In this document: in pieces, positions 3,902-9,765 of the stretch
Layout: every line of letters begins with the position of its first letter
Position numbering within the stretch: position 1 is the first letter of the stretch
Source of the DNA: Acidobacteriota bacterium
GTDB taxonomy: Bacteria > Acidobacteriota > Thermoanaerobaculia > Multivoradales > Multivoraceae
Direction: 5' to 3'
Assembly (NCBI GenBank): GCA_029263415.1
Contig: JAJCXN010000003.1
Span: forward strand, 3,514 to 67,513
DNA length: 64,000 bases
The notes under the pieces: model-generated
Told to the model about the DNA's origin: nothing
Databases searched by the model: none
Seen by the model: the letters and a program-made list of their open reading frames with translations, nothing else
Position numbers and translations under genes: made by a program

Positions 3902-4555
3902 TCACCCCTCGGCCACATCGACCCTGAGTGTCTGCATCACTAGAGGCTCACCGGGCGGCACCAACAACTGACCGACGCATTTCAAGAAGAAATCCTTCAC
4001 GGTGTTCCAATCGGCATCGCCCTCACCCGGCAGCTTTGCTTCGCGATCGGCATCATCGAAGTAGACCATTGCGCGCAACAAAAGCGAGTCGTTGATCGGC
4101 TGTCGGTACACCGTTCGGATCGCCCTGAGGGCGTCAGCGATGCCCTTCCTTTGATGCTGCAACGTCACATAGAGGTCAAAAAAGTCGCGACGTGTGCCGC
4201 GGTCAAGAATCGCGTGCAGCTTAGTCGCGAGGATGCCATCGACATTCAGCCGTCGATCCACCGTGAACTCCGCAATGTCTTCGAGCAAGAAGATAGAGAC
4301 CGGGATCGAGTTCCATCGTAAATGCACAGTGTCAGCGGATCGCTCTTGAACCTCGGTCTCTCCACTGCCTGAAAGAGCGGCCACCAACTGTTCGAGTGAC
4401 GCGCTCTCCCCTACTCCGAAGTCGACATCGCGGGTCGGTCGGTAAGGGCACAAGCAGCGAACCGCGTGGCCGCCGATCACAAACCAGTACGGCAACGGTT
4501 CGAGGACTGGCCGAAACTCCTGCGGGATGACGTCTTCGGGGCGTAGATCGCTCAC
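3902..4555 (-). CDS. Nucleotidyltransferase-fold protein, AbiEii-like (type IV TA toxin-like). Probable GTG start at 4555 overlaps the upstream stop (GTGA).
   Basis: Motif YWFVIGGHAVRCLCPYRPTRDVDF matches the hhhGG.A.....R.T.D.D NTase signature. The GTG at 4553-4555 shares nucleotides with the TGA of ORF 4552..5058, implying translational coupling. Confidence 0.5.
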   Translation of the reverse strand: MSDLRPEDVIPQEFRPVLEPLPYWFVIGGHAVRCLCPYRPTRDVDFGVGESASLEQLVAALSGSGETEVQERSADTVHLRWNSIPVSIFLLEDIAEFTVDRRLNVDGILATKLHAILDRGTRRDFFDLYVTLQHQRKGIADALRAIRTVYRQPINDSLLLRAMVYFDDADREAKLPGEGDADWNTVKDFFLKCVGQLLVPPGEPLVMQTLRVDVAEG

Positions 4556-5058
4556 CGACTGATGCCCCGCACCCGCAGCGTTGCATCCAGCAGACCGCGG
4601 CTGCGAGCCCGCCAGCCTGGCAGTCGAGCAGCTTGGTAGAGCGCGAGCCAAGGGAGGCCCGCGGCAAAGCTCAGTGCTTCTGAACCACCATAGTTGAAGC
4701 AATAGAAGGCGAGCTGGTGGCCAGGAACGGTCCCGCTAGCAGACACGTTGTAGAGAGTCTCTCTAGCTGGCGCTGGCAGTTCCGCGACCGGGAACGCACG
4801 CGTCGGCAGAAACGCCATCGCCTGGTAGATGGTTGCCCGCGCTGGCACTCGCAAGGACAGCGGCTCGCAGAAGGTTTGAAGTTCCGCCAAGACGTCTCGC
4901 ACCGGAGGCCGCTCCTGGCCGCTCAGTAACGACTCGAGCTTCGCTAGAACCCTGGGTTCTAATCGCAATTGTCCCCGGTCTCGCCGACGGCGTAAACCAT
5001 TGGAGCCAAAGCGTTTGGCGGCCCGATCGAACGACGCCTGAAGATTAAAGACGGACAT
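4552..5058 (-). CDS. Hypothetical protein, candidate cognate partner (antitoxin-like) of the downstream AbiEii-like NTase.
   Basis: ATG at 5058 (MSVFNLQASFDRAAKRF...). Same strand as the NTase gene, with a stop/start overlap. No recognisable domain. Weak RBS. Confidence 0.3.
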   Translation of the reverse strand: MSVFNLQASFDRAAKRFGSNGLRRRRDRGQLRLEPRVLAKLESLLSGQERPPVRDVLAELQTFCEPLSLRVPARATIYQAMAFLPTRAFPVAELPAPARETLYNVSASGTVPGHQLAFYCFNYGGSEALSFAAGLPWLALYQAARLPGWRARSRGLLDATLRVRGISR

Positions 5059-5236
5059 CTCCCCGAATAATACCAGACACCGGGCCAACCGATGGCATCG
5101 CGAGCGCCGGCCTCCGAGAGGCCGGGCCGGCGGGTTCGTACGCGGCCTACCCAGAGGTGCAGCTCTGGGCGGCCGCGGGAGCAGGGTCAATGCACCACAA
5201 CGCGAGTCAGGATCGATGGGTCTTTCGTTCAGAGCC

Positions 5237-5385
5237 AGCTTGGAGCTCCAACGATAATCTGGCCGCTCCAGAACCTCAACATTTGGGAGGCACCTGTACG
5301 TGGGCCTCTGTGGACCTCTGCGCCTCCGACTTGCCGTGCGTAGCTGCCGGACCATCTCTTCCGCTGTGTGGCGCTTTCTTTTCAT
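5237..5385 (-). pseudogene. Remnant of an IS3-family transposase OrfA N-terminus (HTH region), internally deleted.
   Basis: Translation MKRKRHTAEEMVRQLRTASRRRRGPQRPTYRCLPNVEVLERPDYRWSSKLAL resembles IS3-family OrfA (MKRKRFT.EEIVRKLRE...VCRELGVSEQTYYRWRKKYGG) but lacks the middle helix. The DNA is homologous to repeat modules at 7575-7642 and 3825-3870. Confidence 0.5.
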
Positions 5386-5584
5386 TGAGGACCCCTGTCC
5401 GATGAGCCCGAGGAAATTGCACACTAAACGGACAGTACGGATGCCCCAAGATCATCCGCCGATATGATCAGCCGCCTGGTCCACTTTGCCCTGAGGCTTA
5501 AGAAACAAGCTCAAGTAGTAGGGTTGCCCGAACGAACAGCTCTCCGGCGACAGAGCACTACCTTTCCCTCCCTCGCGAGCAGGT

Positions 5585-7691: not shown

Positions 7692-8186
7692 TCACCTCTC
7701 GTTGCGATCGATTTCGGCCAGGAGCTGGCGCAGAAAAGGTAGTTGGTACTGGTCTTTCGGCCGATCCGCCTGCTCCTTGGTCTCGATGATCTTCCCGAGC
7801 CCCAGGACTCGAACCCGGATTTCGTCGACATCCAGCATGTGACAGTGGTCGACTAGGGCCTCGAACGACAGACCATCGCCAACAGTCTTCAACAAGTCAA
7901 GACGCCCACATCGGGTCTCGAGAAGATGAATCCTCATTGACGACAACCTTTCTAGATCGGGTTCGATCCGTCGGCCGGCCGGATCCAAATAAGTTGCTTC
8001 GAGACGAACAAGTGCAGATGCCAGGCGAACGTGATTCTCATCGGTAGCTTGGTAGAGGATATCGAGGTCCAAGGTGGTCAATGGCGATCCTTGGAGGATG
8101 GCCGCGATGCCACCGACGATGATGAACTCGACCTCGTGCTCTACGAGAATCGCGAGAGCTTCGTCGAACTTAAGCTCGTTGGCCAT
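7692..8186 (-). CDS. Nucleotidyltransferase-fold protein (minimal NTase, AbiEii/MNT-like), downstream gene of a two-gene TA-like module.
   Basis: MANELKFDEALAILVEHEVEFIIVGGIAAILQGSPLTTLDLDIL carries the GG.A....G..R.T.DLD NTase signature. Overlaps the upstream small ORF by 17 nt. Confidence 0.6.
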   Translation of the reverse strand: MANELKFDEALAILVEHEVEFIIVGGIAAILQGSPLTTLDLDILYQATDENHVRLASALVRLEATYLDPAGRRIEPDLERLSSMRIHLLETRCGRLDLLKTVGDGLSFEALVDHCHMLDVDEIRVRVLGLGKIIETKEQADRPKDQYQLPFLRQLLAEIDRNER

Positions 8187-8430
8187 TGAGAGCCCGAACC
8201 TCTAAGAGCCGATTCATGAGGGTTTGAGCAGCCTGAAGCCGTTCCGTCGGCGTCAGGGCCAGCCGATCGCGAATCATGCTGATGTCCCCCCAATCAAGGC
8301 CCCACTCGGAGGCCTCTAGACCCTCGTAGTCAGGGGGAAGGTCGCTGGATTCCTCCTGGAGCCTTTTGTATAACTTGCGGTCCACTGGTGCATGATACCA
8401 GCGCCCGAGCGTCCCCTGAGATCGCTCCAT
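8170..8430 (-). CDS. Small protein (~87 aa), putative partner/antitoxin of the NTase at 7692-8186.
   Basis: ATG at 8430 (MERSQGTLGRWYHAPVDRKLYKRL...TPTERLQAAQTLMNRLLEVRALNGQRA). Paralogous to the C-terminus of ORF 9481-9765 (SAAERLAMVWPLTLQSWRLSGRDL). Start could instead be 8529. Confidence 0.4.
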   Translation of the reverse strand: MERSQGTLGRWYHAPVDRKLYKRLQEESSDLPPDYEGLEASEWGLDWGDISMIRDRLALTPTERLQAAQTLMNRLLEVRALNGQRA

Positions 8431-9019
8431 TGAGACAGACGAGTGGAGCGAATCGGGGTCGACTTCCACCCGCGCGGTCGCGCTCAAAAGAAGGAGTGGA
8501 TCGCGCGCAACGCAAAAGGTGCCGCGCATTTGAGGATGTTCGTCAATGGGCAAAGCTGATCCGTGCCGAAGCTTGTGCTCGGTTGTTGCTGAGTTGAAAT
8601 CGAAGGCGTGCGGAGTCAGGCCAGCGGAGTCAGGCAAGCGCGCCCTTGGTGTATCGCTATTGATGTCGCTGAGAGTAAGCGCACCAGCCACGCATTTGGA
8701 TCTAGGCTGATCGAAGCCCCAGACGAGTTACGCCCCAGACGGCGGGAGCCGCCCCAGAAACCACTCGGTACCCAATCTCGTCCAGGGTTCGTCCAGGGGT
8801 CAACAGATGAATGGCTCGATCAGCATGGCCGATCGCCCAGCTCCCGGTCGGCTCGAGATTGGGTAAAGCTACCCCGGGAAGCTTCCCGCAGGAAAAGGCG
8901 AAGGCGTCGCTAGCGTCGTCTAAGTGGCCACAAGCAACTCGAAAAGCACGCACGAACTCACGCTAGATTTCGCGCCACTCCTTTCTCGGAGTTCTGTTGG
9001 ACTCGTGGAATGCAACGCC

Positions 9020-9484
9020 CTATTCCTTCTCTCGCAGCAGGTCGGCGTCAACAAGATCCTTCGCGCGACCCGCGGCCAGTTTGTTGGCCAGCAGCTGTCC
9101 CCGCGCGAGCACCGGCAGCTCCATGCCATCGATCGACACTCGGATAGCGGTACGTTCTGCTTCTTCCCAGTCAACACCGCTGATAGCTGTCAACAAATCA
9201 ATTCTTCGGGGAGGAACTCCGAGCTGGTACACCGTGCCCGCAATCTCGAAATCAGCCGCGGTGACACCATGAATTTCGACTGGCGCACCGAACTCCACGA
9301 GAGCCTCGAAAGCACGCTGGGCATTCTCAGGCTCCGGAACGATCAACAGGTCGAGATCCCCGGTCGCTCGCGGCACTCCGTGCACGGCGAGAGCGTGCGC
9401 ACCTACGACTACAAACCTTACGTTCCCCTCAATCAGCTCGAAGAGCAAGTCTCGAAAGTCCTGGTGCAGGACCGGCTCGTTCAA
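9020..9484 (-). CDS. Nucleotidyltransferase-fold protein, paralog of 7692-8186. Probable TTG start at 9484 overlaps the upstream stop (TTGA).
   Basis: FVVVGAHALAVHGVPRATGDLDLLIV motif. Plus-strand TCAA at 9481-9484 is the reverse complement of TTGA, so a TTG start would overlap the TGA of ORF 9481-9765. That start gives an N-terminal length matching the paralog. Confidence 0.55.
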   Translation of the reverse strand: MNEPVLHQDFRDLLFELIEGNVRFVVVGAHALAVHGVPRATGDLDLLIVPEPENAQRAFEALVEFGAPVEIHGVTAADFEIAGTVYQLGVPPRRIDLLTAISGVDWEEAERTAIRVSIDGMELPVLARGQLLANKLAAGRAKDLVDADLLREKE

Positions 9485-9765
9485 GGGTCCTCGCCTGCGC
9501 GAACTACCCTTCCAGGAGCTTCGCTGCGCAAGTAGTCTGGTAAGTCCCGCCCTGATAGACGCCAGCTTTGTAGGGTCAGCGGCCAAACCATAGCCAACCG
9601 TTCCGCGGCGCTGGTGACATCGCTCAAATCATCCGATGGTTCGGAGCCAAGATCAAATCGACGAATAGGCCAATTGACTCGCTCGAGGCGCCGCTGTTTG
9701 CGAAGCAACTGGGCCTTCTGCTCGTCCTCTGGACTCGGACGATTCTTTGCGTATTTCCCCGTCAT
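9481..9765 (-). CDS. Small protein, paralog of 8170-8430; putative partner of the NTase at 9020-9484.
   Basis: Start chosen at MTGKYAKNRPSPEDEQ... by analogy with the paralog. C-terminal similarity ERLAMVWPLTLQSWRL ~ ERLQAAQTLMNRLLEV. Confidence 0.4.
   Translation of the reverse strand: MTGKYAKNRPSPEDEQKAQLLRKQRRLERVNWPIRRFDLGSEPSDDLSDVTSAAERLAMVWPLTLQSWRLSGRDLPDYLRSEAPGRVVRAGEDP

Follow-up and report, generated by a model that had tools for sequence, protein, structure and literature searches.

Three Two-Gene Modules With DUF1814 (AbiEii/MenT)-Type Nucleotidyltransferases, Probably of Toxin-Antitoxin Kind, in an Acidobacteriota Genome

Nucleotidyltransferases (NTases) of the DUF1814 superfamily, which includes the toxins AbiEii and MenT, are among the most abundant effectors of phage defence and of toxin-antitoxin (TA) systems. 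The known classes of their antitoxins are AbiEi/COG5340, COG4861 and MenA1. The unifying model for these systems is antitoxin-induced auto-phosphorylation, and it rests on two antitoxin architectures, AbiEi/MenA3 and MenA1; the phosphoacceptor in MenT3 is S78. Here, we describe three gene pairs (M1, M2 and M3), each consisting of a small partner gene and an NTase gene, in a 64,000-nucleotide (nt) stretch of DNA, hereafter the window, from an Acidobacteriota bacterium of the class Thermoanaerobaculia (assembly GCA_029263415.1, contig JAJCXN010000003.1, positions 3,514 to 67,513). We consider it likely that this interval holds three independent bicistronic TA-type modules with DUF1814 (AbiEii/MenT) NTases, in which the partner is encoded upstream and is translationally coupled to the NTase. 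The NTases are members of the superfamily that keep its metal- and nucleotide-binding motifs, the partners are conserved and locked to their NTases, and the modules are of three types and not recent copies of one another.

Two characterised systems are of particular use for comparison. The AbiEi-AbiEii pair, known from Streptococcus agalactiae and as lactococcal AbiE, is a TA and abortive-infection system that was classed as type IV and has recently been moved to type VII. Motifs I-IV of AbiEii were defined by Dy et al. (2014), and its R63A and motif-IV D192A mutants are non-toxic (PMC3985639). Similarly, MenT1 of Mycobacterium tuberculosis loses toxicity in the D41A, K137A and D152A mutants (PMC10435456). 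Its antitoxin, MenA1, described as short and disordered, binds via a single extended helix and induces auto-phosphorylation of MenT1 at T39 (PMC11375011), and AbiEi likewise induces phosphorylation of AbiEii at T65 (bioRxiv 10.64898/2026.01.19.700257).

The three pairs lie on the minus strand between 3.9 and 9.8 kb, with the partner gene first in each. The M1 partner (4552..5058; 168 amino acids (aa), ATG start), a putative antitoxin/repressor of an unannotated family, precedes the M1 NTase (3902..4555; 217 aa, GTG start), a putative AbiEii/DUF1814-family toxin, and the stop and start codons overlap as GTGA at 4552-4555. The M2 partner (8170..8430; 86 aa from the ATG at 8430, or 71 aa from a probable true start, GTG 8385) and the M2 NTase (7692..8186; 164 aa, ATG start), a minimal MenT1-like protein, overlap by 17 nt, from the ATG at 8186 to the TAA ending at 8170. 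In the third pair, the M3 partner (9481..9765; 94 aa, ATG start) and the M3 NTase (9020..9484; 154 aa, TTG start), also minimal and MenT1-like, overlap as TTGA at 9481-9484. An earlier note on this DNA, made from the letters alone, had described these six open reading frames (ORFs) and their overlaps, and all of them are present on the minus strand as it had placed them. The three NTases as delimited here (217, 164 and 154 aa) all have exact entries in the public protein collection, where they come from gene calls on an NCBI contig of 135,843 bp; independent gene callers therefore agree on the NTases. In the public calls, the partners have N-termini that are longer and that vary, with 277 aa in all for M1 and either 119 or 173 aa for M2. 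We take the M1 partner as 168 aa because most of the 120 homologs listed are 165-172 aa long, with 99% coverage, and GTG 8385 is the most likely start of the M2 partner because its homologs are 68-72 aa long and align from there. The ATG at 8430, which the earlier note had used, is thus probably not the start, and the 800 bp that it had put between the M2 and M3 pairs become about 590-635 bp, measured from the M3 stop at 9020 to an M2 partner start at 8430 or 8385. When the window was searched with hidden Markov models (HMMs) of every NTase and partner type, no further copy was found.

The M1 NTase scores 47.6 bits against the Pfam AbiEii family (PF08843), for which the gathering threshold is 22.5 bits, and it is also matched by the PADLOC AbiEii models; with its motifs intact, as described below, it is AbiEii-like, as had been proposed. 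The M3 NTase passes the same threshold with 32.7 bits. The best Pfam scores of the M2 NTase all lie below the cut-offs, namely DUF6036 (14.8 vs 23.6 bits) and DUF2204 (13.6 vs 20.3 bits). The M2 and M3 NTases are, however, 30% identical to each other over their full length (E 7e-11), and a profile made from these two sequences reached 14,600 representative clusters at E <= 1e-3, most of them 150-170 aa long. From these matches, 102 sequences were drawn for an alignment of the short-NTase family. The profile of this alignment, when run against the PDB, finds the M. tuberculosis toxin MenT1 (8an4) over the whole domain (E 9.9e-8), followed by TM1012 (E 2.4e-5), and the M3 NTase on its own reaches MenT1 8an4 in phmmer with E 0.059. 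The claim that all three proteins have the NTase fold therefore holds, for M1 and M3 by their AbiEii scores and for M2 through its homology to M3 and the match of the family profile to MenT1. The classification by HMM searches that the earlier note had called for gives AbiEii for M1 and M3, but only sub-threshold DUF6036/DUF2204 scores for M2 and no AbiEi match for the partners.

The active-site motifs can be followed in all three proteins. In M1, motifs I and II read IGG-x13-D43-V-D45 with R39, that is, with the Arg four residues before the first Asp as in AbiEii, and motifs III and IV, KLHAILDR and RDFFD, are both invariant across 67 M1-type orthologs from related loci. The motif residues of M1 as a whole (G28-G29, R39, T41, D43, D45, K112, R119 and R123-D124-x-x-D127) show little or no variation among these orthologs. 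M3 has G28 (VGA-x13-D43-L-D45) with R39, again four residues before the first Asp, and T41, and its motifs III and IV are present as K-LAAG-R (K-x4-R) and KDLVD. M2 keeps G25, D40 and D42 and, in motif III, K137-x4-R142; its motif-II Arg is replaced by L36, and its motif IV reads KDQYQ, in which the second Asp, the equivalent of MenT1 D152, is absent. The conserved positions of the short-NTase family, in M2 numbering, are G25, A28, G33, T38, D40, D42, D97, K137, R142 and D145; conservation in the 102 sequences is 97% or higher for G25, T38, D40, D42, D97, K137, R142 and D145, all of which occur in both proteins of the window. The alignment places conserved positions on MenT1 T39, D41 and K137, and MenT1 D152 on position 148 of M2. 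The Ser/Thr that lies two residues before the first catalytic Asp is T41 in M1, T38 in M2 and T41 in M3; this phosphoacceptor position holds T in 101 of the 102 short NTases and S or T in all 67 M1-type NTases. Loss of the catalytic residues had been named in the earlier note as what would speak against its reading: the G-x..-D-x-D core is there in all three proteins, but M2 is without the motif-II Arg and the second motif-IV Asp.

These two residues define two clades of short NTases. They co-vary perfectly, both being present in 59 of the 102 sequences and neither in the remaining 43, all of which have L, V or I at the Arg site and V, A, M or Q at the Asp site. M3, with R39 and the second Asp of KDLVD, belongs to the canonical clade, and M2, with L36 and Q148, to the other. 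The equivalent Arg has been reported to contact the γ-phosphate of the nucleotide (bioRxiv 10.64898/2026.01.19.700257). Members of the M2 clade are probably still enzymes, because they keep the three carboxylates that bind metal, as well as the Thr and the motif-III Lys/Arg; their handling of the nucleotide, and hence their toxicity or regulation, may differ, or their function may have changed. Since two residues that AbiEii and MenT1 cannot do without are replaced in this clade, the M2 NTase is less certain than the others as an active toxin.

The partner proteins are less familiar. All three are without a match in Pfam, NCBIfam or PADLOC; the Pfam models AbiEi_1-4 give none at E <= 1 for any of them and PADLOC none either, which sets them apart from the AbiEi/COG5340 antitoxins. 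The M1 partner has 411 homologs at E <= 0.01, none of which carries a Pfam domain, and in GTDB genomes it is found in Acidobacteriota, Myxococcota/'Deltaproteobacteria', Planctomycetota, Gemmatimonadota, Fibrobacterota and metagenome-assembled genomes (MAGs) of Chloroflexota. In 75 of 83 loci, the next gene downstream is an M1-type NTase, which starts between -12 and +14 nt from the partner stop and most often at -4 or -3; the loci that have no adjoining NTase are mostly contig ends or have partial NTases. The genes around these modules vary between loci, and such a patchy, cross-phylum spread in unrelated contexts fits selfish or mobile behaviour. No relatives of the M1 partner were found in viral contigs, so there is no evidence of a phage-borne M1-type module.

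The profile of the M1 partner gives a borderline match in the PDB to the Iγ DNA-binding subdomain of phage Mu transposase, MuA (2ezh, E 0.017). The AF2 model of the protein is all-helical, with a mean predicted local distance difference test score (pLDDT) of 90.2, and Foldseek superposes it on MuA Iγ over 48-51 residues with a root-mean-square deviation of 1.6-1.8 Å, as well as on part of TnsB. The Mu-transposase-Iγ-like helix-turn-helix (HTH) spans about residues 35-90. The C-terminal half is a strongly conserved helical domain (VPGHQLAFYCFNYG...PWLALYQAARLPGWR), and this half (VPGHQLAFYCFNYG...AAGLPWLALYQAARLPGWR) has no structural match in the PDB or BFVD. An all-helical partner is also what one would see if the roles were reversed as in HEPN-MNT systems, with the NTase as an antitoxin that nucleotidylylates a toxic small partner: HEPN domains are likewise helical, and minimal NTases serve as antitoxins in HepT/MntA systems. 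We regard this arrangement as very improbable here. No partner matches HEPN or any toxin family (Pfam, NCBIfam, PADLOC), the conserved columns of the M1 partner hold no R-x4-6-H motif and its model has no match to the HEPN fold; moreover, the NTases are of the AbiEii/MenT branch and not of the MntA (NTP_transf_2) branch, and the partner-first gene order is the antitoxin-first order of AbiE and MenAT. A HEPN-like role of the partners was rejected for want of a family, motif or fold match.

The M2 partner belongs to a small family, with five homologs of 68-72 aa that are 61-83% identical over the C-terminal 60%. Its core is SEWGLDWGDI..IR..L.LTPTERLQAAQ, in which SEWGLDWGDI...LTPTERLQAAQ is invariant among the homologs. 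At one other locus (L004), an M2-type pair has the identical 17-nt overlap, with an NTase 89% and a partner 73% identical to those of M2. The ratio of non-synonymous to synonymous substitution rates is 0.40 and 0.15 for the M2 partner, vs 0.10 for the NTase; these values are below 1, and the partner is under purifying selection. The M3 partner has seven homologs of 67-94 aa and consists of a basic N-terminal helix followed by the conserved sequence WPIRRF.LG.EPSDDL...T(S/T)A(A/E)ERLAMVWPLTL..W..(A/S)G; at least 147 related metagenome loci carry an M3-type partner. The NTase follows immediately downstream in 68 of 80 loci, and as four loci are cut by the contig end and eight have none, this amounts to 68 of the 76 that can be assessed. 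The helices of its AF2 model lie at residues 12-30 (basic) and 53-71 (conserved, amphipathic), and the rest is unstructured. Profiles of the M2 and M3 partners found nothing at E <= 10 among all PDB chains, including the MenA1-MenT1 complex 8AN5, and no DNA-binding domain was detected in either by Pfam or NCBIfam.

Some relatives bear on how partner and NTase go together. In-frame fusions of the two occur elsewhere (P0145, E 6e-12; P0174, 5e-6; P0198, 7e-4), with a partner-like N-terminus that includes the TP.ERL helix, and they may be taken as a Rosetta-stone hint that partner and NTase interact physically. P0191, P0205 and P0237 look like fusions as well, by eye only, and P0138 is a tandem double NTase. 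At three loci, the NTase is split over two frames beside an intact partner (L002 5872-6353, L003 5906-6387 and L005 319-778); these would fit either decaying TA loci that leave orphan antitoxins or assembly errors. The earlier note had allowed that its reading would fail if the partners were not conserved. Each partner family is in fact conserved and linked to its NTase, in 75/83 loci for M1, in 68/76 for M3 and at L004 for M2.

The M2 and M3 pairs had been described as clear paralogs in both genes and as the result of tandem duplication. An in-situ duplication of one TA module that has since diverged could explain why the pairs stand head-to-tail on one strand, about 600 bp apart, with a like architecture, and why their NTases are homologous (30% identity, E 7e-11). 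The partners also have in common a short helix motif, [ST]-[PA]-x-E-R-L (P = 0.0023). Apart from this motif, the partners show no significant similarity: BLASTP gives E = 12 and hhalign, on shallow profiles, a probability of 0.2%, and with deeper profiles (80 metagenome loci for the M3 type; five homologs and four natural fusions for the M2 type) only 15 columns align, in the helix LTPTERLQAAQ / T(S/T)AxERLAMVW, with P = 0.0023 and a probability of 12.6%. The homology of the two partners was therefore rejected, the common TP.ERL motif alone being too little; as sequence evidence it is suggestive, but it does not amount to clear paralogy. The pairs differ in their overlaps as well (17 nt in M2, 4 nt in M3), and their NTases fall into the separate clades that are set by the co-varying active-site pair (59 vs 43 sequences). 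Each pair has closer relatives elsewhere, M2 being nearer to L004 (NTase 89%, partner 73%) and M3 nearer to L005 (NTase 62-67%, partner 81%) than they are to each other. These data suggest that the two clades had separated well before the present lineage arose. A second short NTase within 3 kb was seen at none of 80 M3-type loci; at M1-type loci, the count was 2 of 80. We therefore consider tandem duplication quite improbable, and of the claimed paralogy only the homology of the NTases stands. The side-by-side modules are best read as a gathering of different module types.

Other genomes in which different NTase modules are grouped were also seen. On a contig of a Kofleriaceae MAG (CBDCWZ010000011.1; L050 2173-2667 and 3001-3507), a short NTase of the M2/M3 family immediately precedes an M1-type pair, and another pair of the M1 type lies about 78 kb off (L040). 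On the contig that carries P0012, an M3-type pair and a pair of an 84-aa and a 192-aa DUF2204-like protein are 5 kb apart.

How the modules would work is best considered by analogy, from which we infer toxicity, target, mode of neutralisation and regulation. By comparison with MenT1, MenT3, MenT4 and AbiEii, the NTase would be a growth-arresting toxin that adds nucleotides to the 3'-CCA ends of tRNA, so that aminoacylation is blocked and translation stops. The partner would be the antitoxin, binding over the active site of the NTase, and it may cause the NTase to auto-phosphorylate at the conserved Ser/Thr that precedes the first catalytic Asp by two positions (T41 in M1, T38 in M2 and T41 in M3). 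In M1, the Mu-Iγ-like HTH would in addition let the partner repress its own operon. The partners of M2 and M3 are short and, apart from a single conserved amphipathic helix, largely unstructured; they would play the part of the 68-aa MenA1, to which they have no sequence homology. The NTase family, the motifs and the two-gene coupling support the TA or abortive-infection-like kind that the earlier note had proposed.

Several observations weigh against this reading. The M2 NTase has no AbiEii match in Pfam and passes no threshold there, and it has neither the motif-II Arg nor the Asp equivalent to MenT1 D152, while AbiEii R63A and MenT1 D152A are non-toxic. None of the three partners resembles a validated antitoxin in sequence; the model of the M1 partner has no Foldseek match to AbiEi 6Y8Q, and the AF2 model of the M3 partner is of low confidence (pLDDT 70.9, predicted template modelling score 0.31) and not fit for a fold search. 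A scan found no sigma-70-like promoter, and the upstream regions of M1-type modules at 73 loci share no conserved operator, so autoregulation finds no support here. The DUF1814 superfamily, furthermore, also holds enzymes that are not toxins, such as ANT(2'')-Ia. Upstream inverted repeats in the 73 M1-type modules average 5.9 nt vs 5.35 nt in shuffles, which is marginal. A palindrome with 8-bp arms lies at 5105-5132; it may equally be a terminator.

The point about ANT(2'')-Ia leads to another explanation, namely that the NTases are ordinary modifying enzymes, either small-molecule or antibiotic nucleotidyltransferases or enzymes of RNA maturation, with the upstream protein as a specificity, chaperone or regulatory subunit. 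It draws some strength from the second-best PDB relative, TM1012, whose function is unassigned, from the enormous size of the short-NTase family (14,600 representative clusters at E <= 1e-3), from the altered nucleotide-binding site of the M2 clade and from the observation that MenT1 itself is non-toxic in E. coli (PMC7450476). However, the nearest characterised relative, MenT1, is a proven toxin, and no metabolic or resistance genes are conservedly linked to the modules. The strict coupling of two genes with overlapping codons, the patchy spread across phyla and the occasional frameshifts of NTases beside intact partners are, moreover, a TA signature. Ordinary modifying enzymes are therefore unlikely, in our view, and we prefer the TA reading.

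Further observations concern the surroundings of the modules. The earlier note had seen a defence/addiction island at 3.6-12.2 kb, with vapBC, Fic and mobile-element debris next to the NTase pairs. This idea is loosely supported: three TA-like modules, an orphan ribbon-helix-helix (RHH) gene and repeat debris are present, but vapC and Fic are absent from the interval. Of the claimed vapBC, only the RHH (CopG/RelB-like) gene at 11732-11974 (minus strand; intact, by Pfam) is supported, and no PIN/VapC is detectable next to it by Pfam. A 53-aa ORF that comes after it (11547-11708, minus strand) begins MIALDT and has by eye, with no Pfam support, the look of a truncated PIN N-terminus; its downstream part, 11547-11602, is shared with the 3' end of an oppositely oriented ORF of 430 aa. 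The sole Fic motif of the window is at about 36.8-37.7 kb, in a Fic-family gene (36845-37712, plus strand) that is apparently split over two frames and is a possible frameshifted pseudogene; Fic_N is weak in 36845-37480, and the ORF with the HPFxxGNGR motif (37329-37712) scores 28.3 bits against Pfam Fic. Near 12.0 kb, a possible C-terminal remnant of a tyrosine recombinase falls short of significance (E 0.16).

A 21-nt inverted repeat brackets the M1 pair exactly, giving a 1.44-kb unit. Its left arm (3853..3873, plus strand) is 95% complementary to its right arm (5275..5295, minus strand), which lies inside a decayed ORF, and a third, partial copy (7616-7640, minus strand) stands just downstream of M2. 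The wider repeat family that flanks the modules has copies at 5235-5295 and 7576-7640, with the pairs 3625-3661/7511-7547 and 5235-5286/7576-7627. These repeats may have been left behind by insertion sequences, or they may mark the termini of a small mobile cassette. The decayed ORF at the right arm begins MKRKRHTAEE... and resembles, by eye only, an insertion-sequence transposase remnant; no significant Pfam family was found in 5059-5424. M1 is closely followed, on its downstream side, by small tandem repeats (3594-3633 and 3817-3864), with a 10-nt unit GAGACAGAGG repeated about four times and a 15-nt unit CCACAAAGGTGGAGT about three times. A 22-nt motif, GGAGTTGAACGAATCGGAAGAA, occurs on the plus strand at 3632, 7518, 16074 and 20134 with at most three mismatches (0 expected), apparently in intergenic DNA, and has no Rfam match. 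Rfam and tRNA scans of the whole window were empty.

The GC content is slightly lower, 0.54-0.58, within 5.5-11.5 kb. Two long ORFs on the plus strand, between and beside the modules, lie in lower-GC stretches, one of 646 aa (5585-7525) with no Pfam, NCBIfam or PDB match, and the 430-aa ORF (10310-11602), which has no Pfam or NCBIfam match and weak PADLOC matches (PDC-M14B, E 0.002). The interval is adjoined by a 950-aa CHAT-domain protein (12779-15631, minus strand). A CHAT-TPR protein is also found about 2 kb from an M1-type module at another locus (L008 1-1950), which may be coincidence.

For the window itself, the significance of these modules is modest: they form a small accumulation of TA-like modules and are neither a new kind of system nor a duplication event. 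The NTases belong to a well-known toxin superfamily, and the partners to three unannotated families, one of which is very widespread in phyla of soil and sediment. A bolder view, which we hold as a possibility on the doubtful side, is that the M1 partner represents a widespread fourth class of DUF1814 antitoxins, with a Mu-Iγ-type HTH and a toxin-binding C-terminal domain of unknown fold, that the M2 clade has a different nucleotide binding, donor or regulatory chemistry, and that partners with the [ST]PxERL helix form a vast unrecognised antitoxin superfamily. If functional, the modules would be natural test cases for the generality of induced auto-phosphorylation and for the convergence of unrelated small proteins on one active-site loop. 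For annotation, the gain is that partners now called 'hypothetical protein' can be named by their context.

Compared with known systems, M2 and M3 find their closest match in MenA1-MenT1 (Rv0078B-Rv0078A) of M. tuberculosis. As in that system, a short partner without a DNA-binding domain (68 aa in MenA1; 71-94 aa here, that is, 71-86 aa for M2 and 94 aa for M3) is encoded upstream of a compact DUF1814/COG4849-type, MenT1-like NTase. The equivalents of MenT1 T39, D41 and K137 are found in both NTases, and that of D152 is also found in M3. In its model, the M3 partner consists mostly of a single conserved helix and disorder, which recalls the single extended binding helix of MenA1. However, neither partner family is similar to MenA1 in sequence, so neither counts as a MenA1 homolog, and the NTases of M2 and M3 fall short of MenT1 (197 aa) by 30-40 residues. 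In the M2 clade, in addition, the motif-II Arg and D152 give way to L and Q. The hosts are of other phyla.

M1, by contrast, is best compared with AbiEi-AbiEii. Its NTase has motif I (GG), motif II (R39...D43-V-D45), motif III (KLHAILDR), motif IV (RDFFD) and the S/T phosphoacceptor, and its operon is bicistronic, with the antitoxin-first order and a 4-nt overlap; its partner carries an HTH, as does AbiEi. Nevertheless, this partner is not AbiEi/COG5340, which consists of a winged HTH and an α/β C-terminal domain, and its HTH resembles MuA Iγ and not a winged helix; the NTase is also shorter than a typical AbiEii (217 aa vs a Pfam profile of 238 positions) and has GG-x13-D vs x15. The DUF6036/DUF2204/TM1012-type proteins are of the same size class as the short NTases (about 150-170 aa) and have an N-terminal hGG...DxD, and M2 and M3 match them weakly; the scores lie below the Pfam thresholds, and neither a function nor a partner has been assigned to these families. 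Finally, HEPN-MNT (HepT-MntA) modules are alike in having a minimal NTase and two overlapping genes, but there the NTase is an upstream antitoxin of another branch and its partner is a HEPN RNase, neither of which holds here.

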